64,000 bases of DNA from Bacillota bacterium (lineage in GTDB: Bacteria > Bacillota > Sulfobacillia > JAJZYS01 > JAJYTV01), in NCBI GenBank assembly GCA_021793315.1, contig JAJYSZ010000001.1, positions 52,423-116,422 of the forward strand, read 5' to 3'. Made by a program: the position numbers and the translations under genes. This document shows, piece by piece, positions 9,504 to 61,127 of this stretch. The notes under the pieces are model-generated. The model searched no databases and was not told where the DNA came from. It was given only the letters and a program-made list of their open reading frames with translations. The first letter of the stretch is position 1, and every line of letters begins with the position of its first letter.

Positions 9504-9527
9504 CGGTGAGCCCTCCTGTGACGGTGC

Positions 9528-23583: not shown

Positions 23584-26500
23584 TCTACGCGCAGACCCAG
23601 GTCAGGCTCAAAGAGTTCCTCCGCACGCAGCGTGAGGCCCCGCCCGCGCCGCTGCACCCTGCCCAGGACGCCCAGAAGGGGCGGCCGCTTGCCGAAGAGC
23701 AGGTCGCCCTGGCGCCGGTAGACATCTTCCATTGCGACGAGATCCAAAAGTCCTGTCTCATCCTCGAGCATAAAGAACGCCACCACCGCACCGCTGCGCG
23801 TCGGCGGCCTGTGCGGCCGGTATGGCACGCCCGCCACGCGGACCGTCTCGCCGTGGCGCAGATGCTTGGTGAGCCCGACGCTGGCGATGCCCTGCCGCTT
23901 CAGGGCCGGTCTGGCCGCCGCCGCGAGGCGGCTGGGCCCGCGCAGGCCGAGCACGGCCTCCTGGCGCCAGAATCGCTGCCAGGGCGCGAAATCCGGCATC
24001 TCCGGCGGCACGGGAGGGAAGAGGCCGTCCGCCTCGCGCCGCGCCCCGATCTGGAGGAGCAGCCGGCGCCGGTTGCGGTCGAAGCAGTCGAGGGCTCCCC
24101 CGTCGCAGAGCGCCGCAAGCTCGTCCGCCTTGAGGCCTGTGCGGGCGGCCAGGTCCTGCAGGCTCCGGAACGGCCCTTCCCGCCGTGCCGCCAGGATGCG
24201 TTCGCGCTGCGCCGCGCCGAGGCCGCGCACGGCGCAGAGCCCTACGCGCACGGCGCCGTCGGCCTCCACCGTATAGGAAGACTCGGATCGCCTGATGTCG
24301 AGCGGCCGGAAGCGCACCCCGCGCCGCAGGGCCTCGCCGACCAGGATGTGCGGCGGGTAGTAGCCCATCGGCTGCTGCGACAGAAGCCCGGCGAAGAGCG
24401 CCTGCGGGCGGCGGGCGGAAAGCTGCGCGGTGCGCAGCGCGGTGTGCGCGAAGGCGGCGGCATGCGCCTCGGGAAAGCCGTAGCTCGCATAACCCTGCAG
24501 CATCGCGAAGATCTCCCGCGCCACCGTAGGATCGCTGCCGTTCTCGGTCGCCTTCTGACAGAAGAGTTCACCCAGGCTCTCCATCTCGGCGGCCGAGCGC
24601 GCATGCGTCATCACGCGGCGCAGCTGGTCGGACTCGCCCAGCGTGAAGCCGCCGATCGTGGTCGCGATCTCGATCACCTGCTCCTGGAAGAGCACGACGC
24701 CGTACGTCTTCTCGAGGATCGGCCTGAGGCGCGGATCGAGGTAGGTGACGCTCTCCTGCCCGGCGCGCCGCCTGAGATACGGGGTGACCATGTTGCCCTT
24801 GATCGGCCCCGGCCGGATAATCGCGAGCGCATGGACGATGTCCTCGAAACTCTTCGCGCCCATCTGCCCTTGCAGGGCGCGCTGCGCCGGGCTCTCGAGC
24901 TGGAAGAGCCCGATCGTCTCCCCCGAGGCGACGAGCGCCATCGCCGCAGGGTCTTCCGCGGCCCTGGCCTCGGCAAGATCGGGCGCGGCCCTGTACGCCT
25001 CGTCCAGCACGGCGAGCGTGCGCAGGCTGAGCAGGTCGAACTTGAGGAAGCCGAGATCCTCGACATCCACCTTGTCGAACGGCACGATCGCCACACCCTT
25101 GGCCGACAGTTGGCGCGGCGCCACCTCGTTCACGGGCTGGCGGCTCACGATCAGCCCGCCGAGGTGCGTGCCGAGATGGCGCGGCAGCCCGGCCACGGCT
25201 GCCGCCGCGCGCAGCAGCAGCGCAAGGCGCTCGGAGGCGCCGGATGCCGCCTGAAGCTCGGGAAAGAGGTCCCAGTGTTTTAGAATCGCATCAGCGGGCA
25301 TGTGCGGCAGACGGCGCTGCAGTTCCTCCACCTCCGCGGCGGGAAAGCCGAGCGCCTTGCCGAGGTCGCGCACGGCCGAACGCCCCTGAAACGTCTGGTA
25401 GGTGGCGACGCCAGCGACATGTTCCTCGCCATAGCGCTGGAAGAGGTAGGCGGCGACGCGGTCGCGCGCGCGGTGGTCGAAATCGAGGTCGATGTCGGGC
25501 CGCTCGGCCCGCTCGCGGTTCAGAAAGCGTTCGAAGAGCAGGTGCCGCGCGATCGGGTCGACCTCCGTCAGGCCAAGGCAGTAGGCGACGGCGGAGTCCG
25601 CGGCCGAGCCGCGCCCCGCGACGCGGATGCCCTCCGAGCGCGCGAAGCGGACAACATCCCAGACAAGCAGGAAGTACTCGGCGAAACCGAGCTCCGCGAT
25701 CGTGCCGAGCTCGTGCTGCAGGCGCCGCCTCACCTCCTCCCGCAGGCTGCCGTAGCGGCGGATGGCCCCCTCGTGCACCAGTTGCTCCAGCATGCCCTGC
25801 GCCGTGTGTCCCGGCGGCAAGGGATAAGCGGGGTAGAGGCGCACGCCGGGCGTGATCGGTGCGCTGCAGCGCGCTGCGATCTCGTCGGTCGCCGCAATGA
25901 GTTCCGGCCGGTCCGAGAAGCGCTCCCGCATCTCCGCCGCGGAGAGAAGGTAGCGCTCGCCGTTCAAGGGACGCTGGGGGCGCACCTCGTCGACGCTGCA
26001 GCCGAGCCGCACGCACGTCAAAAGGTCGTGCACCCAAAAATCCTCGCGCCGCAGGTGGTGCACCGCCGCGCTTGCCGCCTGCGGCAGGTCCAGGCGACGC
26101 GCAAGCTCCTCAAGTCCCGCCTCGAGAGCCAGGTCGCCAGGCAGGGCACCGCGCTGCACCTCCACATAGAGCCGGCCGGGAAACAGTTCGCGCAGGCGCC
26201 GCAGCGCCTGGTCGGCGAGATCCGGGCGCCTCGTCAGGAGCGCTCTCGCAACCGGGCCCGTACGGCCGCCGGTGAGCGCGATCAGCCCATCCTCGCCGGC
26301 AAGCGCCTGATACGGCAGGCGCGGCGCACCCCGCCGGGAGCCGAGATGTGCCGTCGTCAGCAGGCGGCAGAGCCCCGCATATCCCTCTGGACCCGTCGCG
26401 AGCAAGGTCAGGCGCGCACCGTCCGCAAGCGTCACCTCGCTGCCGGCGATGGGCTGGATGTCGAGCCGCCGCGCCGCACGGCAGAGGGACGGCACGCCGC

Positions 26501-26627
26501 TCACGCTGTCATGGTCGGTGAGGGCGATCGCCTTCTGTCCGAGCTCCGCCGCGCGCGTGGCCAGCGCCTCGGGCATCGCCGTCCCGTCCAGAAGCGAGAA
26601 GGCGGAGTGCACGTGCAGGTGCACCAA
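23580..26627 (-). CDS. dnaE2: error-prone DNA polymerase DnaE2 (Pol III alpha C-family)
   Basis: PHP domain HLHVHSAFSLLDG, full Pol III alpha core, ~1015 aa without tau/beta-binding tail. Probable TTG/GTG start near 26627 after AGGAAGGA. Track ORF runs to 26711. Confidence 0.9.
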   Translation of the reverse strand: MVHLHVHSAFSLLDGTAMPEALATRAAELGQKAIALTDHDSVSGVPSLCRAARRLDIQPIAGSEVTLADGARLTLLATGPEGYAGLCRLLTTAHLGSRRGAPRLPYQALAGEDGLIALTGGRTGPVARALLTRRPDLADQALRRLRELFPGRLYVEVQRGALPGDLALEAGLEELARRLDLPQAASAAVHHLRREDFWVHDLLTCVRLGCSVDEVRPQRPLNGERYLLSAAEMRERFSDRPELIAATDEIAARCSAPITPGVRLYPAYPLPPGHTAQGMLEQLVHEGAIRRYGSLREEVRRRLQHELGTIAELGFAEYFLLVWDVVRFARSEGIRVAGRGSAADSAVAYCLGLTEVDPIARHLLFERFLNRERAERPDIDLDFDHRARDRVAAYLFQRYGEEHVAGVATYQTFQGRSAVRDLGKALGFPAAEVEELQRRLPHMPADAILKHWDLFPELQAASGASERLALLLRAAAAVAGLPRHLGTHLGGLIVSRQPVNEVAPRQLSAKGVAIVPFDKVDVEDLGFLKFDLLSLRTLAVLDEAYRAAPDLAEARAAEDPAAMALVASGETIGLFQLESPAQRALQGQMGAKSFEDIVHALAIIRPGPIKGNMVTPYLRRRAGQESVTYLDPRLRPILEKTYGVVLFQEQVIEIATTIGGFTLGESDQLRRVMTHARSAAEMESLGELFCQKATENGSDPTVAREIFAMLQGYASYGFPEAHAAAFAHTALRTAQLSARRPQALFAGLLSQQPMGYYPPHILVGEALRRGVRFRPLDIRRSESSYTVEADGAVRVGLCAVRGLGAAQRERILAARREGPFRSLQDLAARTGLKADELAALCDGGALDCFDRNRRRLLLQIGARREADGLFPPVPPEMPDFAPWQRFWRQEAVLGLRGPSRLAAAARPALKRQGIASVGLTKHLRHGETVRVAGVPYRPHRPPTRSGAVVAFFMLEDETGLLDLVAMEDVYRRQGDLLFGKRPPLLGVLGRVQRRGRGLTLRAEELFEPDLGLRVE

Positions 26628-26753
26628 TCTGCATACGTCCTTCCTGGGGTGCGCAAAGCCTCCCCGGCGCCGGGCGACGGGAGGCGGCCAGCAGGAACCC
26701 ATCCGACCCATCCGGAACGAGCCTCAGCAGAAGGAGGCGGCGCTACGCGCGAA

Positions 26754-27263
26754 CTGACCTTCCGCCGCCTCCAGGCGGGCGATCTGCCGCTCCTCGGCTC
26801 CTGGCTCGCCCTGGAGCCGGCCCTGCGCTGGTACCAGGGCGGCAAGGCGCCGACGGCGGCGGAGCTTGAGGCGAAGTACCTGCCGCGCATCCGCGGCGAG
26901 GTGGCGGTCGCCTGCTGGATCCTGATGCGCCAGGAGCAGCCGGCCGGCTTCTTCCAGACCTATCGCCTGCGGGACTTCCCATCTCATCCAGCCGGTCCCC
27001 GACCGCGCGCCGCCGCCCTTGACTACCTGCTCGCGCCGTCGGCGCAGGGCCAGGGCCTTGCCGCCCCGGCCCTGCTCGCGTTCCTGCATCAGGTGGTGTT
27101 CGCGGCGCCGGACATCCTGCGCTGCTACGCGGATCCTGACCCGGCCAACCTCGCCTCGGTGCGCTCCCTGCGCCGCGCAGGCTTCCGCAAGAGCCCCGGG
27201 CCCCAGGCCGAAGGGGTCATGCTGCTCTCCTGCACGCGCCGCCGGGCCTTCGCTCAGTCGTAG
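26754..27263 (+). CDS. GNAT N-acetyltransferase, AAC(6')-Ib-like family
   Basis: LTFRRLQAGDLPLLGSWL...RWYQGG...YLP...LDYLLAPSAQGQGL...CYADPDPANLASVRSLRRAGF parallels AAC(6')-Ib. Strong AAGGAGG RBS at 26731-26737, but no ATG/GTG/TTG in frame between the RBS and the conserved N-terminus (candidates CTG 26754 or ACG 26745). Convergent with and overlapping the DUF4113-like ORF by 10 nt. Confidence 0.65.
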   Translation: MTFRRLQAGDLPLLGSWLALEPALRWYQGGKAPTAAELEAKYLPRIRGEVAVACWILMRQEQPAGFFQTYRLRDFPSHPAGPRPRAAALDYLLAPSAQGQGLAAPALLAFLHQVVFAAPDILRCYADPDPANLASVRSLRRAGFRKSPGPQAEGVMLLSCTRRRAFAQS

Positions 27264-27499
27264 TTGCGGGTCAGGGTCCAGTCGCGCCTCTCGAGATCGA
27301 AGAGAAGCTCGAACACGCCGCCGCCCTCGGTCTCGACGCGGTAGACCTGGCGTTCGCCGTGTCCCTCCCACCACTCGCCGGCCTCCCGCCAGGCCTCGAG
27401 CACCCGCGCGACGCGGTGCCGGCCGCGGAAGGAGAAGGCGAGCGGCGCTCCGTCCCTGCGTGCGGCCACCGGCACCGGCCGGTTCACGAGTCTCGACAT
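27254..27499 (-). CDS. DUF4113-like ImuB C-terminal domain protein, encoded as a separate ORF
   Basis: 81 aa (EAWREAGEWWEG...YRVETEGGGVFELLFDLERRDWTL). In the same frame as imuB, separated only by a TAG stop and 7 codons. Own GAGGGG RBS 6 nt before the ATG. Confidence 0.5.
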   Translation of the reverse strand: MSRLVNRPVPVAARRDGAPLAFSFRGRHRVARVLEAWREAGEWWEGHGERQVYRVETEGGGVFELLFDLERRDWTLTRNYD

Positions 27500-27520
27500 C
27501 GCATTCCCCTCGCTCTCCGT

Positions 27521-28654
27521 CTATTGCCGCAGCTCAGCCTCGCCGCGCCGGTAGGGGTCGTAGTAGGCCAGGCGCTGCTCCCGCCCGGGCAGGCGCTCCA
27601 GGGGCGGCGGCCCCGGCTTGCGCCGCTCGGGCGCCCGCGCGGCCGGATAGAAGAGACCGCGCTCCTGGCTCGGCTGCGCCTCCTCGGTCGCCGGCAGAAG
27701 GCGCAGGCAGATCTCGTGCACGCCGCCCCCGGCAGCCGCAAGGGCCATGCCGAGCAGGGTCGCCTCCAGCCGGCGCCGCTCGCGCGTCGGTTGGAGCAGG
27801 GTGCGACAGGTCGTCCTGCGGCGGGCCGCCATGTCCTCGATCGCCAGTTCGAGTGCCCCGATCGAGGGCAGGCGCCGCTGCCCGGCGGTCAGCGCCGAGA
27901 GCGCCTCCGTCACCGCCTGGGCGATCTCGACCCGGTTCGTGCAGGCCGCCTCGGGGTAGCTGCGCCGCCACGAGAGGTCCTGTGGCGGCTGCAGCGGCCG
28001 ATAGCCGATAGGCTCTTCGGCTTGCGCGAACTGCCAGAGCTCCCGCCCGACAGGGCCCACCTGCTGCCACAGGGCGCCAGCGCCGAGCGCAAGCACCTCC
28101 CCGACCGTCCTGAGTCCGAGCCCGCCAAGGCGGCGCTGCGCCGACGGCGGCAGCCAGTCGAGCGCCGCGAGCGGCAGATCGCCCCGCTCGCCCGCGCAGA
28201 CGAGTCCACCCGGCACCTCTGCGGGCACGCCGCCGCGCACCCGCGCCTTGGCAAGGCGCAGACTCTCACCCGCCGCCACGCGCACCCGCCAGCCGATGCC
28301 CCGACAGGCCGCGATCGCAGCCGGAATATCCTCCGTCGACCAGAGCTCGATCGCCATCTCGCCGATACCGCACTCCATCACGCCGCGCGCCACGGTGAAG
28401 AGACGCTGGCGCAGTTCCGCCTGCAGTTCGGCGCAGGCGGCGTCCCCGGGATCCCGGCGCCAGAGCAGTCCCAAGGCGATCAAGGCGGCCGGGGACAGTT
28501 CCTGTCCCTGTACGAGTCCGCTGCCCGCCCCCCGCTCCGAAAGATCGCGCAGGCGCCGGCCCGAAAGCACGGCAAGGGGCTTTTCGACGAGTTCGGGCTC
28601 GCGCTGCTGCAGAGCCTGGGCTCTCAGGCCGTCGACCTCCACGTATAGCAGCAT
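27521..28654 (-). CDS. imuB: ImuB-like inactive Y-family DNA polymerase, N-terminal polymerase-fold part
   Basis: MLLYVEVDGLRAQAL... Y-family fold with degenerate catalytic residues (EVD instead of DMD; GIGE instead of SLDE). 377 aa, shorter than typical ImuB because the C-terminal domain is in the next ORF. Confidence 0.8.
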   Translation of the reverse strand: MLLYVEVDGLRAQALQQREPELVEKPLAVLSGRRLRDLSERGAGSGLVQGQELSPAALIALGLLWRRDPGDAACAELQAELRQRLFTVARGVMECGIGEMAIELWSTEDIPAAIAACRGIGWRVRVAAGESLRLAKARVRGGVPAEVPGGLVCAGERGDLPLAALDWLPPSAQRRLGGLGLRTVGEVLALGAGALWQQVGPVGRELWQFAQAEEPIGYRPLQPPQDLSWRRSYPEAACTNRVEIAQAVTEALSALTAGQRRLPSIGALELAIEDMAARRRTTCRTLLQPTRERRRLEATLLGMALAAAGGGVHEICLRLLPATEEAQPSQERGLFYPAARAPERRKPGPPPLERLPGREQRLAYYDPYRRGEAELRQ

Positions 28655-37033: not shown

Positions 37034-37235
37034 CGATCTCGTCGCCCTTTCGAAGGCGGCCCGCGCTCCCAGGCGCGGGCCGCCTTCGCGCGTGCTGGGC
37101 CACGGGCCGGCGGAGGCATGCACCTGACGGCACAAGGGCAGGCTACTTGCTCGATGGCACTTTTAGCCGCTTCTCAGGCTATCTCGAAGGACCCGATGCT
37201 AGAATGAGCCCTGGATCGCAGTAAGGAGGGCTTAT

Positions 37236-38363
37236 GTGCTCTCGTTGATCATTCCGACCTTCAACGAACGCGATAACATCCAGCCCCTTTATGAGCGGGT
37301 TCGCAATGCTCTGGGCGCTGAGGAATACGAGATCATCTTCGTCGACGACAGCATCGACGAGACTACGCGCGAGATCGCCCGCCTCGCGGCGGAAGACCCC
37401 CGCGTGCGCCTCCTGCACCGCCGGGAGCGCGGCCTGTCCACTGCGGTCATCGCCGGGTTCGGCGCCGCGCAGGGCGACCTTGTCGCCGTGATGGACGCGG
37501 ACCTCCAGCATCCGCCAGAGATCCTGCCGCAGATGCTGGAGGCGCAGCGCCAGCGCGCAGCCGACCTGGTGGTGCCGTCCCGCTATGTGGATGGCGGCAA
37601 CCCCGGCGGACTCAACGGCCCGATCCGGCGCCTGCTCTCGCTGGGCGGCAAGGAACTTGCCCACCTCATGCTGCGCGAGAGCCGCGTCACCAGCGATCCC
37701 ATGTCCGGCTACTTTCTGGCTACGCGCGAGGCCGTGCTGCCGCTGCTTGGCGCCAAGCCCAAGGGCTTCAAAATCCTTCTGGAACTCCTCGTGCGCGGCC
37801 ACGTGCGCCGCACCGTGGAGGTGCCATATGTTTTCGCAGAGCGGTCCGCCAACCAGTCCAAGCTCGGTTGGAAGACGCAGGTGGACTACCTCAGACAGCT
37901 TCTGGACCTTGTTCCGGTCCATCCCGAGAACACCCGCTTCTTTCTCTTCGCACTCGTGGGCGGCACGGGAGTCGCCGTCAATGCCGCGCTCTTCTCGCTC
38001 CTGACGAGCGACCTGCTGACAGGTGTGCAGTACGCCGCCCTGCTGGCGTCGCCGATCGCCTCGAACGCGGCGATCATCTGGAACTTCATCTGGAACACTT
38101 CGATCACATGGCGCGACCGCTACCGCTCGGAATACCTCTGGCGGCATGCGCTCCGCTACGTTCTCGTCTCCGAGATGGGCACCCTGCTCACCTGGCTCGT
38201 GCTCATCGTCCTCCGCGCCATGGGCCTGCGCTTCGACCTCCTGGGCCAGTTGATCGGCATCGGCGTGGCGGTGCTGGCCACCTACCGCCTGAACGACCGC
38301 TGGACCTACCTGCCCGACGGCAAAACCGTCCTCGAGCCCGAGCGCAGCGTCTCCCGCCGTTAG
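37236..38363 (+). CDS. polyprenol-phosphate sugar synthase (Dpm1/GtrB-like GT2) fused to a GtrA-family membrane domain
   Basis: IIPTFNERDNI, VMDADLQHPPE (Dpm1-type DAD motif). C-terminal ~120 aa with four TM helices and the GtrA signature (VGGTGVAVNAALFSLL...NFIWNTSITW). Confidence 0.85.
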   Translation: MLSLIIPTFNERDNIQPLYERVRNALGAEEYEIIFVDDSIDETTREIARLAAEDPRVRLLHRRERGLSTAVIAGFGAAQGDLVAVMDADLQHPPEILPQMLEAQRQRAADLVVPSRYVDGGNPGGLNGPIRRLLSLGGKELAHLMLRESRVTSDPMSGYFLATREAVLPLLGAKPKGFKILLELLVRGHVRRTVEVPYVFAERSANQSKLGWKTQVDYLRQLLDLVPVHPENTRFFLFALVGGTGVAVNAALFSLLTSDLLTGVQYAALLASPIASNAAIIWNFIWNTSITWRDRYRSEYLWRHALRYVLVSEMGTLLTWLVLIVLRAMGLRFDLLGQLIGIGVAVLATYRLNDRWTYLPDGKTVLEPERSVSRR

Positions 38364-38366
38364 CGC

Positions 38367-39506
38367 ATGGTAACAGCCGGTACCCCTCCACGCTGGCGCG
38401 AGCGCATACCGCTGGCGCTTAGGGGATTCCTCTTTACGCTGGTGCCGATCTGGCTCATTGGCATCGTGGGCCTTTGGATACTGCCGCTGCCGCTCGGCTC
38501 TCACCACTGGGCTCCGCCCATCGCCGGCTGGGTCGGCCTGTTCGCCCGCTGGGATTCCGCCTGGTACTACCGCATCGCGGACATCGGCTACTGGCGCACG
38601 GCCGCCTACGCGTTCTCGCCTCTCTACCCGCTTCTGATGCGCGGCCTGCATGCCCTGACGGGCGTGCCTCTGGTCTTGAGCGGCGAACTGCTCGGCTGGG
38701 CCGCAGACCTCGCCGCGCTCGCGCTGCTTGTGCGGCTGTGGCGCGAGGAGGCCGGAGAGGAGGTGGCCCGCCGGGCGCTGTGGCTTCTGCTTGCCTACCC
38801 GGCCGGCTTCTTCCTGCTTGCGATGTACCCGGAGTCGCTCTACCTCCTGCTTTCCGTCGTCACGTACCTGCTGCTGCGCCGCGAACGCTACGTCTGGGCT
38901 GCAGTGGCGATGGCGCTGGCGGCGCTCTCGCGCGCCAACGGCATCCTGCTTATCCTGCCCTACCTCGCATTTGCCTGGGAGGGCTCGGGCCGCAAGCTCG
39001 ACCGGCTCTTCTGGCGGCGCGCCGCTCTCGCGCTGATCGGCGTTGCGGGACTCGGCCTCTACCTGGCCTACAGTTGGGCAACCAGCGGCGACCCGCTGCA
39101 GTTCCTGGCGCAGCAGGCCACTTGGCATCGCCACTTCACCGGCGGCGCCTTCGCGCTCGCCTACGCCCTCATCCACATCTTCTACGGTCAGGGTCTGCCC
39201 TTGACCATCACGGACTTCCTGGCGCCGCTCGCGTTTCTGGGCGTGATCGCCTTCGATCGCGGCCGGCTGACGCTCGGCGACAAGCTTTACGTCTTTTTCG
39301 GCGTTCTGTCGATCCTGGTCGACCCGTCGATTCCAAACGGCTTCGTTCTTATGAGTGCGACACGCCTCGTCATGCCGTACTTCCCTGTATACCGTGTAGT
39401 CGCGGAACGGCTGACCGAGCGGCAATGGCGCATAACTATGGGGGTGATGGCCTTCCTGCAGGTGTGGTTCTGGTTTACATATACGCACTGGTGGTTTTCC
39501 GGATAG
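38367..39506 (+). CDS. GT-C fold membrane glycosyltransferase, PIG-V/Gpi18-like mannosyltransferase family
   Basis: FARWDSAWYYRIADIGY and the subsequent TM arrangement parallel the PIG-V family (RWD..H...IAE.GY). 379 aa polytopic. Starts 3 nt after the stop of the preceding GT2 gene. Confidence 0.6.
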   Translation: MVTAGTPPRWRERIPLALRGFLFTLVPIWLIGIVGLWILPLPLGSHHWAPPIAGWVGLFARWDSAWYYRIADIGYWRTAAYAFSPLYPLLMRGLHALTGVPLVLSGELLGWAADLAALALLVRLWREEAGEEVARRALWLLLAYPAGFFLLAMYPESLYLLLSVVTYLLLRRERYVWAAVAMALAALSRANGILLILPYLAFAWEGSGRKLDRLFWRRAALALIGVAGLGLYLAYSWATSGDPLQFLAQQATWHRHFTGGAFALAYALIHIFYGQGLPLTITDFLAPLAFLGVIAFDRGRLTLGDKLYVFFGVLSILVDPSIPNGFVLMSATRLVMPYFPVYRVVAERLTERQWRITMGVMAFLQVWFWFTYTHWWFSG

Positions 39507-39658
39507 CCCTCGGCCAACTCTTGGCTCGCTCTAAGTTTGTTCCTGTACGGTCCTAGATGACCCCGGAGCCAGGGCTTCTGTGCTACCGTAGTTGCGGTTG
39601 TACGTGTGAAAGAGAACGCAGATCGGCGCCTCGCGTCGTACGTCGAAGGAGGATCTTC

Positions 39659-40834
39659 TTGCGCATACTGATCATCGGTGGCGACGGTTACCTGGGCTGG
39701 CCGACGGCTATGCATTTCGCCCAGCGCGGACATGAAGTCGCAGTACTCGATAACATGATCAAGCGCCGCTGGGAGAGCGAGCTCGGAGTCGCTCCGCTCT
39801 GGCCCATCGCAACGCTGACCGAGCGCGCGCAGGCCCTGCGCGAGACTACGGACCGCGAAGTCGAGGTGTTCGTCGGCGACGTCGCCGACAAGTCGGTGGT
39901 CCGGGGCGTGCTTTCGCGTTTCCTGCCGGAGGCGATCGTACACTACGGCGAGCAACCCTCAGCGCCGTTCTCGATGATCGACGCCGAACACGCCATCCTC
40001 TCGCAGGCCAACAACGTCCTCGGCACGCTGCAGCTCGCCTTCGCCATGCACGACATCGTGCCTGACGCGCACTTGATCAAGCTGGGCACGATGGGCGAAT
40101 ACGGCACGCCGAACATCGATATCGAGGAAGGCTACCTCGAGATCGAGCACAACGGCCGACGTGACCGCCTGCCCTTCCCCAAGAGCCCCGGCTCCTTCTA
40201 CCACCTTTCGAAGGTCCACGACTCCCACAACCTGATGTTCGCCGCGAAGCTCTGGAACCTGCGCATCACCGACCTCAACCAGGGCGTCGTCTACGGCACC
40301 ACCACCGACGAGACCGCAATGGATCCGCGGCTGGCGACGAGCTTCCACTATGACGAGTACTTCGGCACGGTGATCAACCGCTTCGTGGCGCAGGCCGTCG
40401 CCGGCATGCCGCTCACCGTGTACGGCGCGGGGGGCCAGAAGCGCGGCTACCTCAACATCCGCGACACCTTGCAGTGCGTCGAGATCGCCGCGATGAACCC
40501 TGCGTCAGCTGGAGAGTTCCGGGTCTTCAACCAGTTCACCGAGCAGTTCACGATCGACGAACTGGCGAATCTCGTGGTGGAGGCCGCCGCCAAGCAGGGC
40601 ATCCGGGCGGAGAAGAAATCCATCCCGAACCCGCGCATGGAGCTCGAGAATCACCACTACAACGCGCGCAACAGCGGGCTGATCGCCCTTGGTCTACAGC
40701 CGCACCGCCTGACTGTCGACGTGCTGGCCGGCATGATCGCGTGGGCAGCGCAGCACCCCGAGCGCATCAGCCGCGACGTCATCATCCCGACCGTCCAGTG
40801 GCGCAAGCAGCCTGAGGGCGTCCGCGAAGCCTGA
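39659..40834 (+). CDS. sqdB: UDP-sulfoquinovose synthase (SqdB/SQD1/Agl3 family)
   Basis: TTG start 6 nt after AAGGAGG. ILIIGGDGYLGW Rossmann motif, HYGEQPSAPFSMID, KLGTMGEYGTPNIDIEEGY, SFYHLSKVHDSHNL, DLNQGVVYG are SQD1-family signatures rather than generic epimerase motifs. Confidence 0.85.
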   Translation: MRILIIGGDGYLGWPTAMHFAQRGHEVAVLDNMIKRRWESELGVAPLWPIATLTERAQALRETTDREVEVFVGDVADKSVVRGVLSRFLPEAIVHYGEQPSAPFSMIDAEHAILSQANNVLGTLQLAFAMHDIVPDAHLIKLGTMGEYGTPNIDIEEGYLEIEHNGRRDRLPFPKSPGSFYHLSKVHDSHNLMFAAKLWNLRITDLNQGVVYGTTTDETAMDPRLATSFHYDEYFGTVINRFVAQAVAGMPLTVYGAGGQKRGYLNIRDTLQCVEIAAMNPASAGEFRVFNQFTEQFTIDELANLVVEAAAKQGIRAEKKSIPNPRMELENHHYNARNSGLIALGLQPHRLTVDVLAGMIAWAAQHPERISRDVIIPTVQWRKQPEGVREA

Positions 40835-40865
40835 TCGAGCAGCATTCGCAAGGGGGGGTGAGAGC

Positions 40866-41792
40866 ATGCGCCAGCGGGTTTGGACGTGGGGCATCCCAGC
40901 GGTCTTTTCGCTTGCCGGCGTCTACGCCGTGGTCAAGAGCCTCGGCTCCCTCAACATGCTCTGGCACGTCCACCCCTACTGGCCCGACCTTCTGCTCGTG
41001 CTCGTCGTCTATCCCGTGTTCGCCGCCGGGCGGGGCCTGCGCTTCCGCCAGTTGCTGCGCGACGAGGGCACCTGGCAGAAGACGGTCGGCCTCGGCTGGC
41101 TCTACTCAGCTGCGTGCAGCGTGCTGCCGGGCGGCATCGGCGAGGTGTCGCTGCCGCTCATCTACCGGAGCGCGCCCGGCGGTCCTGCGCACGCCACCGC
41201 CGCCATGGCGGTGGCGCGGGTGCAGGACCTGCTCTCGTGGCTCGTCATCCTGGTCATCGCCGGCTTCGCCGTATCCACGCTGCCAGCCGGCTCCATGGCC
41301 CTTTTGAGCATCTCTCTCGTCGTGACGGCGGTCGGCACGCTCGTGGTCTTCGTCCCACCGGCGCGGCGCTTCCTATTCCGCCTGGCTGGCCTCATTCCCT
41401 GGCCCAAGCTGCACCGCTTCCTCGCGCAGATCGACGAGCGGCTCGGCGACATGGTCTACAACTTGCCCAGCTGGATCGTCACCTTCGGGCTACGCCTGCT
41501 GAGCATCCTCTCCTACTACCTGTCGCTGCGGGCCTTCGGCGCTCCCGTCACCTTCGCCGAGGCGTCCGTCGGCGGGGCTCTGGCAGCCCTGCTGCTTGTC
41601 CTGCCCGTGCAGGGCGTGGCCGGGCTCGGCACCGTCGAGGTGTGGTGGATCATGATCCTGCGCCTCTTCGGCACTCCCTGGTCGGTGGCCGCCGTGGCCG
41701 CGATCGGCGTCCACTTGACCCTGCTTGTCCTGTCGGTGGCCGTGGGCGGCCTGTCGTTCAAGACGTCCCCGGGCCTTCTATCCACCACCTGA
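40866..41792 (+). CDS. UPF0104 / lysylphosphatidylglycerol-synthase-TM-like flippase-type membrane protein
   Basis: 308 aa, ~8 TM, resembles the LPG_synthase_TM family that often accompanies Dpm1-like GT2 enzymes. Confidence 0.65.
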   Translation: MRQRVWTWGIPAVFSLAGVYAVVKSLGSLNMLWHVHPYWPDLLLVLVVYPVFAAGRGLRFRQLLRDEGTWQKTVGLGWLYSAACSVLPGGIGEVSLPLIYRSAPGGPAHATAAMAVARVQDLLSWLVILVIAGFAVSTLPAGSMALLSISLVVTAVGTLVVFVPPARRFLFRLAGLIPWPKLHRFLAQIDERLGDMVYNLPSWIVTFGLRLLSILSYYLSLRAFGAPVTFAEASVGGALAALLLVLPVQGVAGLGTVEVWWIMILRLFGTPWSVAAVAAIGVHLTLLVLSVAVGGLSFKTSPGLLSTT

Positions 41793-41808
41793 ACGGAGGA
41801 ACGACGCC

Positions 41809-42846
41809 ATGAGCGCCCTACGCCTCGGCGGCATTCTCGTCGCACTGATCCTTGGCTTCATGGTCCTGCGCGGGCTCTCACGCCGCGCGCCGACCTCCGT
41901 CGACGGCCTCGGCTTCCTGGCCGCCCTCATCCTTCTGGCGGTTTCCCTGTTCCCGGGCCTCGTCAACGTCCCGACGGACCTCCTGCTCCTCGGGCGCGCG
42001 CCGAGCGGACGCCTGCTCGCGCTCATCCTTGCGTCGAACATCGTGCTCTGGCTCTACACGTTCTGGTCCGCGGGCCTGCACCGCCGGAGCCACGAGCGTG
42101 CGGACGGGCAGCTGGAGGCCCTGGTGGCCCGCATCGCGTCGCAAGGTGCGAACCCCGACCTCGGCGGCATCGTCATCGTGATGCCCGCCTACAACGAGGA
42201 GGAGTCCGTGGCGCAGGTCGTGCGCGGACTGCCGAGGGAGATCCTCGGCCAGCACGTGTACCCCGTCGTGGTCGCCGACGGCTGCAGCGACCAGACGACG
42301 GCCGTGGCGCGCAGCGCCGGAGCGCTGGTGCTGGACCTGCCGATCAACATGGGCGGCGGGGCGGCCATCCGGGTCGGTTACAACTTCGCCGCTCAGAGCG
42401 GAGCTCGCGTGATCGTCACCATGGACGCCGACGGGCAGCATCTCGCCTCCGACATCGAGGGGCTGGTCGCGCCGATCCTGCACGGCGAGGCGGACTTCGT
42501 GATCGGCTCGCGCCGCCTGGGCACGTTCGAGAAGGTGAGCGCACTGCGCAGCGCGGGGCTGTCCTTCTTCAACTTTTTTCTCAACCTTCTGCTGCAGACC
42601 CGGCTCACCGACTGCTCTTCGGGCTTCAGGGCCTTCGACGCGCACAAGCTGACGCACCTCGAGACCTCGGAGAGCCAGTACCACACGTCGGAGACCATCA
42701 TGCTCGTGCGGCGGCTCGGGCTGCGCATCGCGGAGCGTCCGATCACCGTCCAGCGCCGCATCGCCGGTCAGAGCAAGAAGGGGAACGATTTCGTCTACGG
42801 CTATCGTTTCGCGCGCACCATGCTGACCCGATGGCTGCGCGGGTAG
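41809..42846 (+). CDS. GT2 glycosyltransferase, Dpm1-like, with N-terminal membrane anchor region
   Basis: ATG 41809 (MSALRLGGILVALILGF...). ~100 aa N-terminal TM region, then VIVMPAYNEEESV, VTMDADGQH (DAD), FVIGSRRLG. Confidence 0.85.
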   Translation: MSALRLGGILVALILGFMVLRGLSRRAPTSVDGLGFLAALILLAVSLFPGLVNVPTDLLLLGRAPSGRLLALILASNIVLWLYTFWSAGLHRRSHERADGQLEALVARIASQGANPDLGGIVIVMPAYNEEESVAQVVRGLPREILGQHVYPVVVADGCSDQTTAVARSAGALVLDLPINMGGGAAIRVGYNFAAQSGARVIVTMDADGQHLASDIEGLVAPILHGEADFVIGSRRLGTFEKVSALRSAGLSFFNFFLNLLLQTRLTDCSSGFRAFDAHKLTHLETSESQYHTSETIMLVRRLGLRIAERPITVQRRIAGQSKKGNDFVYGYRFARTMLTRWLRG

Positions 42847-42853
42847 GGCGGAC

Positions 42854-44701
42854 GTGGCAAAGGCGGACGCGGTTGCGCCGCAGCGCAGGGGCCTCGGCCA
42901 AGTGCTGAGGCCCGTTGCGCATTTCGTGGTGCGCCTGGTTCCGCCAAGCCGCAGGGCGGAACTCGAGCGGGCAGGCACCACGCCCTATGGCTTCGGGCTG
43001 GGCCTGGCCGTCTACCTGGTGCTCACCCTCGCCGTGCTGGGACCCACGCTCGTGCGTCCCGGCGGGAGCTTCCCAGGCTATGGCGGCGACGCGGAGCAGT
43101 ACATGTGGTACATCGGCTGGTTCTGGCATGCCGTCGCGTCAGGCAAGAACCCCTTCATCACTCTCTTGATCAACTACCCGCACGGCATGAACCTGATGTG
43201 GAACACGTCGATCATCGCGGAATCGGTCCTCCTGGGCCCGCTGGCCGCCACGATCGGCACCACCGCAAGCTACAACCTCTGGTTCGGGCTGAACTACGTT
43301 TTGGCCGGGGTCCTGGGACAGGCGATCTGGGCCCGCCTCGGCGCACGCCAGTGGCTCAGCATCCTGGGCGGCCTCTTGACCGTGACACTGCCCTACATGA
43401 CGACGCAGGCCCTCTCCCACATCAGCCTGATCACGATCGAGCTCCTGCTGGGCATCGTGCTGATCCTGCTGAAGCTCGCGCAGGACCGGCCGCACCGGGT
43501 GTGGCTCTGGGGCGTCCTGGCGGGCGCCCTGCTCGCACTGCAGTTCTACACGCTGCTCGAGGTGCTGGTCAGCGCCGTCCTGACAGGTGCACTCACGCTG
43601 GTCGTCGCCTGGTTCGCCGCCCGCCAGGATCTTGTCCGGGTCGCGCGGCGCATCCCGCCCGCCTTCTGGGTGGCGGCCGCCGTCACGGCGGGCGTCCTCG
43701 CCGCTCCGGGGCTCTACGAGATGCTGTTCGGGCCGTTCCGCGTCTTCCACTCGGTGCAGCCCCCGAACGTCTACGTAGTCGACCTCGTGAACCTCATCCT
43801 GCCAACCCACGCCTTCCTCGTGCACTTCCCCGGCACCGATCCCGCGGCCTGGTTCACGGGCAACTTCGCCGAGGACAACGGCTACCTCGGCATCCCGGCC
43901 CTGCTGCTGCTCCTCTGGGCCGTGCGCCGGCTCTGGCGGCGGCCGCTGGTGCGCGTGCTCGCCATCGTCGCGGGCATCGTCACCGTGCTGGCCCTTGGCC
44001 ACACGCTGCACCTGATCGGCTGGACGTCGCCCCTGCCGCTGCCCTGGGCGGCGGTCAGCCTGCTGCCCTTCGTCAAGGACCTGCTGCCAACCCGCCTCAT
44101 GCTCTATACCGACCTCGCCGTCGTGGCCATCACCGTACTGGCCGTCGAGGACTACCTTCGCCACGGCGGCACCGGGGCGGGACACAGGCCATACTGGCTT
44201 TTGGGCCTGATGGTCGCCACGTGGCTGCCCGTCCTGCCCTATCCCAATACCACGCTCCCGCAAGCCACGGTGGACATGGCGCCCAAGACCGCGGTGGCGA
44301 AGGCGCTGCGCGGACAGCCCACCTACGTGCTCACCATGGCGTTCCCCGAGACCATGCAGATGCTGCAGCAGGCGGGCTACAGCTTCCCTGTCGCCAATGT
44401 CTACGGCCACAACGACAACACCATCAGACGCCAGCAGCAGCTGCAGGGCGTCCAGGTGTTGCTGAACCCGAGTCTCGCCCCGGAGATCTACCAGACCATT
44501 CTTGTCGACGACCTGATGCGGCTGCATGTCACGCGGCTCTACTTCCTGCCGCGCCCGAACTACGGTTCGACCACGATCCCTCAGGAGGCCCTGCGCCAGA
44601 TCAACGCGACGCTCGGGCCGCCGATCGCCGCCTCGCCCACTGGCAGCATCGTCTGGCGCGTGCCGAAAACTCCGGTCTTCGAACAGAACCCACAGCCGTA
44701 A
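42854..44701 (+). CDS. large polytopic membrane protein, probable GT-C glycosyltransferase (YfhO/PMT-like)
   Basis: 615 aa, >12 TM. Conserved-looking loop GGDAEQYMWYIGWFWHAVASGKNPFITLLINYPHGMNL near the N-terminus. Directly follows the GT2 gene (8-nt gap). Confidence 0.55.
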   Translation: MAKADAVAPQRRGLGQVLRPVAHFVVRLVPPSRRAELERAGTTPYGFGLGLAVYLVLTLAVLGPTLVRPGGSFPGYGGDAEQYMWYIGWFWHAVASGKNPFITLLINYPHGMNLMWNTSIIAESVLLGPLAATIGTTASYNLWFGLNYVLAGVLGQAIWARLGARQWLSILGGLLTVTLPYMTTQALSHISLITIELLLGIVLILLKLAQDRPHRVWLWGVLAGALLALQFYTLLEVLVSAVLTGALTLVVAWFAARQDLVRVARRIPPAFWVAAAVTAGVLAAPGLYEMLFGPFRVFHSVQPPNVYVVDLVNLILPTHAFLVHFPGTDPAAWFTGNFAEDNGYLGIPALLLLLWAVRRLWRRPLVRVLAIVAGIVTVLALGHTLHLIGWTSPLPLPWAAVSLLPFVKDLLPTRLMLYTDLAVVAITVLAVEDYLRHGGTGAGHRPYWLLGLMVATWLPVLPYPNTTLPQATVDMAPKTAVAKALRGQPTYVLTMAFPETMQMLQQAGYSFPVANVYGHNDNTIRRQQQLQGVQVLLNPSLAPEIYQTILVDDLMRLHVTRLYFLPRPNYGSTTIPQEALRQINATLGPPIAASPTGSIVWRVPKTPVFEQNPQP

Positions 44702-55286: not shown

Positions 55287-56146
55287 ACGTCACCCTTGCC
55301 GCCCGCCTGCCCGATCACGGCGGCGGGCCTGGGTCCGCGCACCGCACTCTCCAGCGGTCCGCGGACCGCGATCGGCGTCGCCTTGAAGGCGGCGAGCACC
55401 GCGGCAAGGCGCGGGTCGCCGAGCGCCGGCAGGTCCAGCAGCAGGACGTCCGGCCGCCCCCAGAGGACGTCCTGGCGAAAGCGGCCAAGCACCGTGTCGA
55501 GCCCCTGACCCTGCCACGGCAGCGGCCCGTCGTCCGGCCAGAAGGTCGCGAGCGACTGCACCCTGATGCCTTGCCACGGCATCGTCAGCACGAGACTGTC
55601 GACCAGGATCGGAGGATGCTCCAGCCCGAGTCTTGGCCGCAGTGCCGGCGCGCCGAGGTCCGCATCGAGAATCGCGACCGAGCGGCCAAGCCCCTGCAGC
55701 GCAAGCGCCAGGGCTACGACGGCCGTGCTGCGTCCGCTGCCGGCGCCGCCGAAGACGCCGAGCACCTCGGCGTCACCGAGCCCGCCGACCTCTGCGCGCA
55801 GCGTGCGCGCGAGCCCGACCGCGTCGCGTACGCCCCGCACCGGAACCTCGGCTCCGGACCGCTCGCGGCAGACATCGAGAAACGCGGCGTGCCACGGACT
55901 GTCCGGATCAGGCAGCTCAAGGGCGTCACCGCGCACCAGACCGAGCCGGTCGGGCGGAGCCAGGAGCAACGGGTGGCATGGCCAGCTCAGGTCGATCGCG
56001 ATCGCCTCCCCTAGACTCTTCGTCAAAATTCCCGGAGCGCCTCGTCGCATCCTGCCGTGGCGCATTACTTCGGCATGTCCATATGGACACTGTAGAGCGT
56101 CTGGTTGGTCGTGTCCTGGTGACGTTTTCACTTGGCATTTGGCCAC
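55181..56146 (-). CDS. Mrp/MinD-family P-loop protein homolog with degenerate nucleotide-binding motifs
   Basis: VFGGAGSGRSTAVVALALALQGLGRSVAILDADLGAPAL and WGRPDVLLLDLPALGDPRL mirror Mrp/ApbC GKGGVGKST...DADIYGP...DYLIIDMPPGTGD, but lack the Walker A Lys and the PPGTGD. It is the only plausible gene in 55.3-56.2 kb. Its 3' end overlaps iadA by ~105 nt. Start uncertain. Confidence 0.4.
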   Translation of the reverse strand: MAKCQVKTSPGHDQPDALQCPYGHAEVMRHGRMRRGAPGILTKSLGEAIAIDLSWPCHPLLLAPPDRLGLVRGDALELPDPDSPWHAAFLDVCRERSGAEVPVRGVRDAVGLARTLRAEVGGLGDAEVLGVFGGAGSGRSTAVVALALALQGLGRSVAILDADLGAPALRPRLGLEHPPILVDSLVLTMPWQGIRVQSLATFWPDDGPLPWQGQGLDTVLGRFRQDVLWGRPDVLLLDLPALGDPRLAAVLAAFKATPIAVRGPLESAVRGPRPAAVIGQAGGKGDVQLPYAPPGERLLVFASLLRPFAESGVWKGSGSSQ

Positions 56147-56274
56147 TTATTCGTTATCCTTGCGGAGATATGATTGGGCCACATGGGCCTGCCCCAAACG
56201 GCAGGCGACGCCGCCTCACGCGGAGCTCAGGTTCCAGTGGCCGCCCATCGCGGAAGATCGGAGGGCGGAGATCT

Positions 56275-57294
56275 TTGAGAAGGCATCGTCGGCCCGGCTT
56301 CAAGGCGTCGCTGCCTCTGATCGTGACCCTTGCGGCGCTCCTGCTCGGCGGATGCGGGCTCGGCAAGCAGTCGACGCTCTCACCGGCCGGACCTGTTGCA
56401 CAGGCTCAGCTCGGCATGCTGTACGAGAGCCTCGCGATCATGAGCGTGATCTTCATCGTGGTTCTTGCCGTGTTCGTCTACTCTCTGATCCGATTCCGCG
56501 CGCGCAAGACGGATACCGAACTGCCGAAGCAGGTACACGGCAGCACGGCGCTCGAGATCGTCTGGACCATCATCCCGATCATCATCATCGTCGCCCTCTC
56601 GATCTCCACGGTGCACTACGCGTTCGCCCTGGAAACGCCCCAGACCGGCAAGGGCACGGTGCAGGTCCAGGTGATCGGCCATCAGTTCTGGTGGGAGTTC
56701 CGCTATCCCGGCACCGGGGTCGTGACGGCCAACCAGGTCCACATCCCGGTCGGTAAGAAGGTCAACTTCTCGCTGCAATCCGCGGACGTCGTGCACTCGT
56801 TCTGGGTGCCCCGCCTTGGTGGCAAGACAGACCTGATCCCCGGCCGCACGAACACGCTCTGGCTCGAAGCGTCTAAGCCTGGCGTGTATTACGGCCAGTG
56901 CGCCCAACTCTGTGGCGCAGGGCACGCGTACATGAAGTTCACGGTCCTGGCGCAGTCGCCTGCCGCGTACAAGGCGTGGCTCCAGCACATGCAGCACGAC
57001 ACGGTGTCCGTGACGACCCCGGAGGAGACGGCCGGCCTCGCCCTGTTCAAGCAGGACTGCTCGACGTGTCACACCATCCAGGGCACGCCCTTCCACGGAA
57101 ACGTGGGGCCGAACCTGACCGCCCTCGCTACGCGCCCGACCATCGCTGCGGGCACGCTGCCGAACACGGCGCAGGGCCTTGCCACCTGGCTCAAGGACCC
57201 GGCGGCCGCCAAGCCGGGCGCCAAGATGCCGGACCTCGGCCTGTCGCAGACCCAGATCCAGTCGCTCGTCGCCTTCCTGCAGACCCTGAAGTAG
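56275..57294 (+). CDS. ctaC: cytochrome c oxidase subunit II with C-terminal cytochrome c domain (caa3-type)
   Basis: TTG 56275 after GGAGGG. Lipoprotein-type signal LLLGGCG. CuA CAQLCGAGHAYM. Heme c CSTCH. Confidence 0.9.
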   Translation: MRRHRRPGFKASLPLIVTLAALLLGGCGLGKQSTLSPAGPVAQAQLGMLYESLAIMSVIFIVVLAVFVYSLIRFRARKTDTELPKQVHGSTALEIVWTIIPIIIIVALSISTVHYAFALETPQTGKGTVQVQVIGHQFWWEFRYPGTGVVTANQVHIPVGKKVNFSLQSADVVHSFWVPRLGGKTDLIPGRTNTLWLEASKPGVYYGQCAQLCGAGHAYMKFTVLAQSPAAYKAWLQHMQHDTVSVTTPEETAGLALFKQDCSTCHTIQGTPFHGNVGPNLTALATRPTIAAGTLPNTAQGLATWLKDPAAAKPGAKMPDLGLSQTQIQSLVAFLQTLK

Positions 57295-57318
57295 ACCGCG
57301 CAAGAGGAGGTACGGACC

Positions 57319-59804: not shown

Positions 59805-59808
59805 AGCG

Positions 59809-60117: not shown

Positions 60118-60167
60118 CGCCCGCGGGGCGATGCGTCGTTCCCAAGGTATCAATCTGCATTAGGGAG

Positions 60168-61085: not shown

Positions 61086-61127
61086 CGCAACCTGGAAACG
61101 GGATCCGTAGAAGCGGAGGCGGGCCCC

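Follow-up and report, generated by a model that had tools for sequence, protein, structure and literature searches.

INTRODUCTION

In Streptococcus pyogenes, GacI makes N-acetylglucosamine (GlcNAc)-P-undecaprenol and is bound and stimulated by the DUF2304 protein GacJ; GacK flips GlcNAc-P-undecaprenol, and GacL, a glycosyltransferase of the GT-C type, passes the sugar to the polyrhamnose of the group A carbohydrate (10.1101/180810). A mycobacterial DUF2304 protein, Rv3632, stimulates PpgS, and fusions of DUF2304 to GacI homologues occur in other bacteria (10.1101/180810). Here we analyse a locus of six genes (positions 37236–44701) in a 64-kb stretch of DNA from a member of the Bacillota (contig JAJYSZ010000001.1; the whole stretch is referred to as the window), in which a gene for an SqdB/SQD1-type uridine diphosphate (UDP)-sulfoquinovose synthase lies among genes of predicted lipid-carrier glycosylation. 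We propose that the locus comprises two lipid-carrier modules and that the second, consisting of sqdB (gene 3) and the genes for a UPF0104 membrane protein (gene 4), a GT2 glycosyltransferase with a DUF2304-like domain (gene 5, GT2b) and a GT-C enzyme (gene 6), installs sulfoquinovose on an extracytoplasmic acceptor of the cell envelope. To this reading, in which donor, carrier and acceptor are all predicted, we assign a probability of roughly 0.58.

Judged by analogy, the nearest experimentally studied counterparts of the second module are GacI/GacJ/GacK/GacL and PpgS/Rv3632/Rv3779 rather than CsbB/GtcA/YfhO, the comparison drawn in an initial annotation of this DNA, although the three-component logic of that comparison holds. 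As in the Gac system, a GT2 enzyme with a three-helix DUF2304 domain, a flippase and a GT-C enzyme are predicted to add a single sugar outside the membrane. The module differs from the Gac system in that DUF2304 is fused to the GT2, the linked gene is for UDP-sulfoquinovose and not UDP-GlcNAc, the flippase candidate belongs to UPF0104 and is not Wzx-like, and the GT-C enzyme is of the DUF6311 family and not GacL-like. In Mycobacterium tuberculosis, PpgS (Rv3631), Rv3632 and Rv3779 place galactosamine on arabinogalactan, where the GT-C enzyme Rv3779 takes up the polyprenyl-P-sugar that PpgS makes. In NCBIfam, GT2b matches PpgS best, whereas sugar, organism and GT-C family all differ. CsbB/GtcA/YfhO and GtrA/GtrB/GtrC likewise consist of a cytoplasmic GT2 acting on undecaprenyl phosphate, a flippase and an extracytoplasmic GT-C enzyme, and YfhO-like proteins take the place of DUF6311 in three of the loci surveyed below (L088, L073 and L120). 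Unlike these systems, the second module has no separate GtrA-type flippase, and its predicted sugar is sulfoquinovose, not GlcNAc or glucose.

Sulfoquinovose is usually regarded as the head group of sulfoquinovosyl diacylglycerol (SQDG), the sulfolipid of photosynthesis, and views of its global cycle start from SqdB–SqdX; a 2026 review of sulfoquinovose cycling gives biosynthesis through SqdB–SqdX only (PMC13436972). The locus shares with the classical SQDG pathway (SqdB with SqdX/SQD2, or SqdB–SqdD–SqdC–SqdA of alphaproteobacteria) the first enzyme, with catalytic residues kept, but the partner of SqdB is a Dpm1/ArnC-type GT2 and the window holds no SqdX-like GT4. The known non-lipid use of sulfoquinovose is in an archaeal N-glycan, made by the Agl3 pathway (PMC4388408). 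There too UDP-sulfoquinovose serves a surface glycoconjugate and the synthase gene is clustered with that of a membrane-bound glycosyltransferase; that pathway differs in being archaeal and in using a dolichol-pyrophosphate oligosaccharide and the transferase AglB, and its sulfoquinovosyltransferase step is itself predicted only (PMC4388408). Full-text literature searches found no description of a bacterial lipid-carrier/GT-C system for sulfoquinovose, in agreement with the initial annotation, which had named no bacterial precedent.

RESULTS

Organization of the six-gene locus

Six open reading frames (ORFs) lie head to tail on the forward strand at 37236–44701, in a window of ~68% G+C, and codon-position GC is typical of genes in 6/6 of them (GC3 0.83–0.91, GC2 0.41–0.49). 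The initial annotation had described six co-oriented, tightly spaced genes, and the ORFs are found at or near where it had placed them. Its start for sqdB, a TTG at 39659 preceded by a GAAGGAGGA ribosome-binding site (RBS), was retained, whereas that of gene 5 had to be corrected to the ATG at 41809, which, in place of an upstream TTG, stands behind a GGAGGA RBS, yields a protein of 345 aa as in relatives and does not overlap gene 4. It had assigned the products, in gene order, to a Dpm1/GtrB-type GT2 with a GtrA-like domain, a PIG-V-like protein, SQD1/SqdB, UPF0104, a Dpm1-like GT2 and a 615-aa GT-C-like protein, with a DAD..QH motif in both GT2 enzymes; the searches described below bear out each of these assignments, the last despite the lack of a Pfam match. 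The intergenic gaps, from gene 1 to gene 6, measure 3, 152, 31, 16 and 7 nt. Since the gaps are tight and all six genes occur in unchanged order in four close relatives, whose SqdB proteins are 76–93% identical to that of the window, the block is not a chance juxtaposition. The SqdB cluster at 76% identity to gene 3 is labelled Thermaerobacter sp.; the source is accordingly a high-G+C member of the Bacillota, heat-loving and of Gram-positive type.

Gene 3 belongs to the SQD1/SqdB family

Gene 3 (39659..40834, forward strand; 391 aa) matches Arabidopsis SQD1 (structure 1qrr) with 490 bits (E 3e-146) and 53% identity over 382 ungapped positions, and the family-specific block KLGTMGEYGTPNIDIEEGY is present verbatim. 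In the alignment, T144, Y181, H182 and K185 of gene 3 correspond to T145, Y182, H183 and K186 of SQD1, in which Thr145, Tyr182 and Lys186 are catalytic and His183 is family-specific (PMC4388408). The N-terminal GGDGYLG fits the GxxGxxG NAD-binding motif. GalE, RmlB and UXS models scored only 38–40 bits on gene 3, and the ~450-bit score gap rules out GalE or a dTDP-glucose dehydratase. In NCBIfam, UDPsulfquin_syn (NF041015) was the top model with 458 bits, below its equivalog cut-off of 575, and the next match lay >400 bits lower; we read the shortfall as reflecting a strict cut-off and not as an argument against the SQD1/SqdB family. We conclude that gene 3 is, by family, a genuine SQD1/SqdB-type synthase, with predicted UDP-sulfoquinovose synthase activity.

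A tblastn search (E 1e-3) with an SqdX probe taken from the cyanobacterial locus L065 found no SqdX in the 64-kb window; as a positive control, the same probe detected sqdX beside sqdB in L005, L029, L075 and L079. Glyco_transf_8 was not found among ~45 window ORFs in general Pfam scans, in which no probe was aimed at SqdD (GT8). Pfam scans of ~40 window ORFs outside the block revealed no further glycosyltransferase, nucleotide-sugar or sulfur-assimilation gene. Both the absence of a GT4 SQDG synthase and the standing of the UDP-sulfoquinovose synthase as the only nucleotide-sugar gene of the block had been claimed in the initial annotation.

GT2b resembles polyprenyl-phosphate glycosyltransferases

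Gene 5 (41809..42846, forward strand; 345 aa) consists of three N-terminal hydrophobic helices, which resemble the DUF2304/GacJ domain, followed by a GT2 domain of the Dpm1/PpgS/ArnC type (Pfam Glycos_transf_2, 8e-18) that carries the DAD..QH motif as TMDADGQH. The best Pfam match of the N-terminal 118 aa is DUF2304, albeit weak (E 0.0045, 17.7 bits vs a cut-off of 25.5), and PF10066 (DUF2304) together with GT2 is annotated in full-length homologues of 40–47% identity. The best NCBIfam matches are PpgS (110 bits) and AglJ (87 bits).

A 35-member profile of the GT2b family was searched against the PDB. The top seven distinct sequences were the dolichol-phosphate mannose synthase of Pyrococcus furiosus (PfDPMS, 96.5 bits), three ArnC (74–77 bits) and three GtrB (58 bits), and these alignments span the whole catalytic domain (positions 117–332), acceptor half included. 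The next matches, chondroitin synthase and GpgS, reached ~40 bits and covered the nucleotide-binding half only. An AlphaFold model of gene 5 (predicted local distance difference test (pLDDT) 81.8) has N-terminal membrane helices that agree with the three hydrophobic segments, and Foldseek placed ArnC, DPMS and GtrB among its top matches at a root-mean-square deviation (rmsd) of 3.2–5.4 Å. From family, modelled fold and gene linkage we infer that GT2b is a polyprenyl-phosphate glycosyltransferase, and its predicted activity is that of a UDP-sulfoquinovose:polyprenyl-phosphate sulfoquinovosyltransferase.

Linkage of sqdB and GT2b across bacteria

The association of the two genes was surveyed from both sides. 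In a sqdB-centred survey (one genome per species, best 80 loci, 10-kb flanks), a GT2b relative of at least 140 bits was present in 18/80 loci and lay ≤2 kb from sqdB in all but one. These loci belong mostly to Solirubrobacterales, Thermoleophilia and other Actinomycetota, with one from Dehalococcoidia and some from Bacillota. The reciprocal survey started from metagenome loci found with the GT2b profile, a score of at least 150 bits being taken as a close match. SqdB was encoded within the fetched flank in 28/52 loci with a close GT2b, compared with 0/28 loci with a weaker GT2, a difference that rules out chance adjacency. When only loci with at least 2.5 kb on both sides were counted, the corresponding figures were 13/19 for close GT2b and 0/9 for distant GT2, and the gap between the two genes was mostly <1 kb. 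The pairing is seen in Bacillota, Actinomycetota, Chloroflexota, Patescibacteria and unassigned marine contigs.

An alignment of GT2b-linked SqdB homologues showed that T(S)-Y-H-K is kept in 54/54 of those covering the catalytic positions. In a neighbour-joining tree, of which the broad partition alone was used, as a few long branches stem from over-extended ORFs, GT2b-linked SqdB stand apart from a clade that holds Acidobacteria and the sqdX-adjacent loci of cyanobacteria (L065 and L079), Alicyclobacillus (L005) and Chloroflexaceae (L075).

A locally built hidden Markov model detected UPF0104 homologues near GT2b-family genes, from adjacent to ~5.5 kb away, in 14 independent loci, and GT-C-type or large polytopic membrane proteins are encoded beside, or a few kb from, the sqdB–GT2b pair in many. 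The type of GT-C protein varies: a DUF6311-family gene is present in the lineage of the window and directly follows sqdB in the Chloroflexi locus L046; L073 (Actinomycetota) has sqdB, GT2b and two YfhO-like genes; and L088, from a Bacillota metagenome-assembled genome (MAG), combines sqdB, UPF0104, GT2b, a YfhO-like gene and a second polytopic membrane protein. In the TARA contig L090, the order is PMT_2, SqdB, DUF2304-GT2 (GT2b), UPF0104 and GT87/MptA_B. PMT_2 (L093, L094 and L099) or YfhO (L120) lies next to GT2b or ≤~1.2 kb from it in four further loci.

A Patescibacteria MAG (GCA_027717985.1; L091:1650-13220) carries genes for a PAPS (3′-phosphoadenosine 5′-phosphosulfate) reductase, an EF-Tu/CysN-type GTPase, a phosphodiesterase-family protein, a 513-aa SqdB-like protein, thioredoxin, a DUF2304-GT2, a second GT2, a sulfatase-family protein, two methyltransferases and UPF0104. 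Judged from their families, the PAPS reductase, CysN-type GTPase and thioredoxin could together supply sulfite, and the cluster has the look of a sulfite-to-sulfosugar glycosylation island, complete in itself, in a bacterium with a reduced genome.

Several other arrangements were observed in the course of the surveys. Between GT2b and the YfhO-like gene of L088 (13257-14474, reverse strand) lies a gene whose 405-aa product lacks a Pfam match and is predicted to have nine membrane helices; this product shows weak similarity (E 1e-4) to PMT_2 of L090 and is possibly a second GT-C-like protein, of short length. In an uncultured member of the Chloroflexia (L011:9992-20277), sqdB is part of a Wzx/Wzy-type cluster with an epimerase, a Polysacc_synt flippase, GT4, Wzy_C and a GT2b-like gene, which suggests sulfoquinovose in a repeat-unit polysaccharide. 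In two MAGs of Hyphomicrobiales/Alphaproteobacteria (L002:10001-15060 and L043:9189-11155), sqdB is flanked, by eye, by a NeuB-type synthase, a cytidylyltransferase and an ATP-binding cassette (ABC) exporter, not by sqdD/sqdC. The commonest Pfam families among 113 neighbours of sqdB–GT2b pairs were AIR-synthase-related (8), class V aminotransferase (7) and PfkB kinase (7), in soil Actinomycetota loci such as L110, L111, L117, L119, L126 and L133; these neighbours may reflect lineage synteny or a sulfur-donor link.

Candidate flippase and GT-C enzyme of the second module

Gene 4 (40866..41792, forward strand; 308 aa) encodes a polytopic membrane protein of the UPF0104/LPG_synthase_TM family. 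Its match to Pfam PF03706 (E 1.3e-13, 51.5 bits vs a cut-off of 33.4) runs the full length, residues 18–294 covering model positions 20–302 of 302. A PDB sequence search found no solved relative of gene 4, and a 12-member UPF0104 profile gave only spurious matches to a secretion-system protein. None of the known types of dedicated flippase (GtrA, Wzx or ArnEF) is encoded in module 2, which has the UPF0104 protein instead. The membrane domain of MprF moves lysyl-phosphatidylglycerol to the outer leaflet, and adjacency together with homology to this region of MprF makes gene 4 a candidate flippase for the lipid-linked sulfosugar.

Gene 6 (42854..44701, forward strand; 615 aa), a polytopic membrane protein, had no match in the Pfam copy used, even at E 1. 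Its relatives (72–100% identical) carry a precomputed PF19830 (DUF6311) annotation and one of them PF09594 (GT87); the family is small, with 33 proteins in a word-indexed search. An AlphaFold2 model (pLDDT 87.6, predicted template modelling score 0.86) has a C-terminal soluble domain, and in a Foldseek search 32/32 best PDB matches were GT-C enzymes (AftD, STT3/AglB/PglB, AftA, DPY19, Pmt4, ALG3 and ArnT), with probabilities of 0.97–1.00 and query-normalised template modelling scores of 0.26–0.50. The modelled protein is thus of the GT-C fold. In GT-C enzymes the catalytic acid sits in the first extracytoplasmic loop; in gene 6, D79 is invariant among 28 family members within the motif GDAEQY, in the loop that the first long helix (residues 44–67) leads into, and is the putative catalytic residue. 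We predict that gene 6 takes the sugar off its lipid carrier and attaches it to an extracytoplasmic acceptor.

Genes 1 and 2: a parallel module

Gene 1 (37236..38363, forward strand; 375 aa) combines a GT2 domain (Pfam Glycos_transf_2, 1.2e-31) with a four-helix GtrA/DPMS-type membrane domain (GtrA_DPMS_TM, 3.5e-19). It is homologous over its full length, four-helix membrane domain and DAD..QH motif included, to P. furiosus DPMS (5mlz; 216 bits, E 9e-63, residues 2–357 vs 25–371), from which it differs in being bacterial and in standing beside a gene for a PIG-V-like GT-C enzyme. Its DAD..QH motif reads VMDADLQH, and DADLQHPPE is shared with 5mlz. Gene 1 is a predicted polyprenol-phosphate-hexose (probably mannose) synthase. 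Gene 2 (38367..39506, forward strand) encodes a polytopic PIG-V-like (GT76-type) putative GT-C protein of 379 aa, relatives being called at 364–375 aa, that matches Pfam Mannosyl_trans2/PIG-V (E 1.9e-8, 34.6 bits vs a cut-off of 22.4) and, weakly, the NCBIfam cell-surface glycopolymer family AZOBR_p60025; it had no match in a PDB sequence search. Gene 2 is the predicted user of the lipid-linked sugar of gene 1. The flippase-like part of this module is the GtrA/DPMS-type membrane domain fused to the synthase, and nothing else.

Two Bacillota MAGs whose SqdB are 68–69% identical (L001 and L088) keep sqdB, UPF0104 and GT2b and lack genes 1 and 2, in place of which a prolyl-tRNA synthetase gene stands upstream. 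Because these relatives retain sqdB–UPF0104–GT2b without genes 1 and 2, we conclude that the locus consists of two modules and that only the second is tied to sqdB. The initial annotation had described a two-module glycosylation locus and read it as pointing to sulfoquinovosylation; the tie to sulfoquinovose holds for module 2 (sqdB, UPF0104, GT2, GT-C) but not for module 1, which is lineage-specific and absent from the next relatives. As far as protein families can tell, module 1 is probably a polyprenol-phosphate-hexose module parallel to module 2 that attaches mannose or a different hexose, perhaps to the polymer that module 2 would modify.

Edges of the locus and intergenic regions

Upstream of the block lie genes for an HtpX-type M48 peptidase and a PspAB-family protein. 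Directly 3′ of the latter, at the upstream edge of the locus, is a perfect GC-rich hairpin with a 17-bp stem (37051..37088, forward strand), with a folding energy of −43.8 kcal/mol (z −4.3) that 0/200 shuffled sequences equalled, and it is kept in L081. The hairpin is terminator-like, but without a T tract. The region ahead of gene 1 (37157..37235, forward strand) is conserved and contains an extended −10-like TGcTAGAAT (37197–37205) and an AGGAGG RBS before the GTG at 37236; blocks invariant between the window and three relatives 5′ of gene 1 are GCACTTTTAG, TTCTCAGG, CCGATG and AGGAGGGC. These features mark it as a candidate promoter region. A consensus scan for promoters and terminators gave matches no better than chance and none at 37157–37235.

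The 152-nt spacer between the modules (39507..39658, forward strand), which carries the GAAGGAGGA RBS of sqdB, contains blocks conserved in an alignment with relatives, such as CTCTAAGTTTGTTCC and ACGCAGATCGGCGC, and is a possible site of an internal promoter or leader. No Rfam family and no tRNA was found in scans that covered the whole window. Downstream of gene 6, on the opposite strand, are an HD-GYP-type gene and an ABC transporter/GntR unit.

Other features of the window

The carbohydrate-related genes found in the window outside the block are limited to one for a polysaccharide deacetylase (20663–21454, forward strand) and one for a PIG-L-family de-N-acetylase (22509–23216, reverse strand), neither of them linked to the block. 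At 5216–10220 (reverse strand), a phosphate ABC transporter (PstS/C/A-like) and a glycerophosphodiester-phosphodiesterase-like gene, recognised by eye, and a major facilitator superfamily transporter, detected with Pfam, form a phosphate-scavenging neighbourhood ~27 kb from the six-gene locus. At 23580–28654 (reverse strand), a 1043-aa DnaE-type DNA polymerase III alpha subunit is encoded beside ORFs of 216 and 377 aa, the latter without a Pfam match; the arrangement resembles an error-prone DnaE2 cassette, of which the polymerase alone was identified. A cytochrome c oxidase operon (55633–62547, forward strand), with a COX2–cytochrome c fusion, ORFs of the size of subunits I and III, a UbiA-family (CtaB-like) gene and CtaA, fits an aerobic organism.

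DISCUSSION

From protein families, the folds of GT2b and gene 6, gene order and cross-phylum linkage, we infer the donor, the carrier lipid, the role of the flippase and the acceptor in the following scheme. SqdB would use UDP-glucose together with sulfite to produce UDP-sulfoquinovose, and GT2b, a membrane-anchored DUF2304-GT2, would load the sugar at the cytoplasmic face onto a polyprenyl monophosphate, in all likelihood that of undecaprenol. Polyprenyl-P-sulfoquinovose would next be flipped by the UPF0104 protein into the outer leaflet, where the DUF6311 GT-C enzyme would hand the sugar to an acceptor outside the membrane. This acceptor might be a wall polymer, teichoic-acid-like or secondary, or else a lipoglycan or a protein of the cell surface. 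The net outcome would be a phosphate-free, permanently anionic surface sugar. This sequence of loading, flipping and GT-C transfer is the model of the initial annotation, and among the readings considered it is the best supported by the present analysis. Systems of this logic are known, and the novelty lies in the sugar, in the dedicated clade of GT2 enzymes and in the family of the candidate flippase.

A different fate of UDP-sulfoquinovose has to be considered, in which GT2b is a sulfolipid synthase outside family GT4 that uses diacylglycerol or another membrane lipid as acceptor, the UPF0104 protein flips the resulting anionic glycolipid as MprF does, and the GT-C genes serve other sugars. 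Some GT2 enzymes, for example cyanobacterial MgdA, do act on diacylglycerol. UPF0104/LPG_synthase_TM shares homology with the membrane portion of a protein that both makes and flips a lipid, SQDG is the classical product of UDP-sulfoquinovose (PMC13436972), and a lipid-making two-gene unit would explain simply the many sqdB–GT2b pairs that lack a GT-C gene nearby. It would not readily explain GT-C genes of at least four families near sqdB–GT2b in unrelated lineages, which are hard to account for if irrelevant. Moreover, every one of the closest solved relatives of the GT2b profile is a polyprenyl-phosphate transferase whose alignment extends through the acceptor half, and DUF2304 has so far no known role other than that of partner to polyprenyl-P-sugar synthases. 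We regard a sulfolipid synthase as unlikely, if the strongest of the alternatives. Rather less probable is that GT2b adds sulfoquinovose from UDP-sulfoquinovose to a cytoplasmic lipid-linked oligosaccharide or polymer that is then exported, the GT-C protein acting as ligase, polymerase or oligosaccharyltransferase. The membrane-bound transferase Agl1, encoded beside agl3 in Sulfolobus acidocaldarius, is predicted to transfer sulfoquinovose from UDP-sulfoquinovose to an N-glycan (PMC4388408), oligosaccharyltransferases (STT3, AglB and PglB) are among the best structural matches of gene 6, and the sqdB of L011 does lie within a Wzx/Wzy-type polysaccharide cluster. In the block described here, however, Pfam scans detected no priming phosphoglycosyltransferase, Wzx or ABC exporter; the GT2b profile fits monophosphate-lipid transferases far better than polymer-building GT2 enzymes, and the GacJ-like fusion points in the same direction.

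It could also be that GT2b loads glucose, GlcNAc or another common sugar and that UDP-sulfoquinovose feeds an SQDG synthase of the conventional kind, with its gene in another part of the genome. The characterised relatives of GT2b use N-acetylhexosamines, mannose, glucose or 4-deoxy-4-formamido-L-arabinose (Ara4FN), sqdB is missing from the fetched DNA near GT2b in 6/19 well-flanked close loci, and the search for SqdX spans the 64-kb window only; the last two points also tell against sulfoquinovose loading by GT2b. That window nonetheless holds no SqdX-like gene, the adjacency of sqdB and GT2b extends across phyla at 28/52 loci with nothing comparable for distant GT2, the SqdB tree partitions by partner type, and the L091 cluster includes PAPS reductase and thioredoxin, a sulfite supply. 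We give this explanation the lowest probability of the three.

Transfer of sulfoquinovose through a polyprenyl carrier to the envelope, the reading we prefer, has further points to contend with. The donor of GT2b is predicted solely from gene linkage, and the sequence of a GT2 enzyme does not reveal its acceptor. GT2b misses the PpgS equivalog cut-off (110 vs 370 bits), so gene 5 is not a PpgS orthologue but a member of a wider polyprenyl-phosphate GT2 group; its own DUF2304 match is below threshold, and the best structural matches of its model also include GpgS, whose acceptor is soluble, at ~7 Å rmsd. We know of no experimental precedent for a UPF0104 protein as a polyprenyl-P-sugar flippase. 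Many sqdB–GT2b pairs, for example in Solirubrobacterales, stand amid housekeeping genes with no UPF0104 or recognisable GT-C gene nearby, and in the Pfam census of 113 neighbours lineage-specific housekeeping genes dominate, with 5 UPF0104 genes. In view of this census and of the pairs amid housekeeping genes, the full four-part module characterises a subset of sqdB–GT2b loci and is not universal. A wider generalization is therefore offered tentatively, at somewhat less than even odds: a phylum-spanning pathway in which a dedicated DUF2304-GT2 makes polyprenyl-P-sulfoquinovose, UPF0104 proteins form a new class of flippases for lipid-linked sugars, and interchangeable GT-C enzymes transfer the sugar onto wall polymers, lipoglycans or surface proteins.

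The proposal is directly testable: there is an enzymatic route to UDP-sulfoquinovose, and undecaprenyl phosphate can be obtained. Species of Thermaerobacter are cultivable. If the proposed pathway is correct, sulfoquinovose would have a second biosynthetic fate and new producers among non-phototrophic bacteria, and its sources in soils, sediments and hot habitats would include members of the Bacillota, Actinomycetota, Chloroflexota and Patescibacteria that have been overlooked as such. A large clade of DUF2304-GT2 enzymes and the UPF0104 and DUF6311 proteins would gain a role, and the modified envelope would carry a sulfonate-based, phosphate-free counterpart to the charge that teichoic and teichuronic acids provide.

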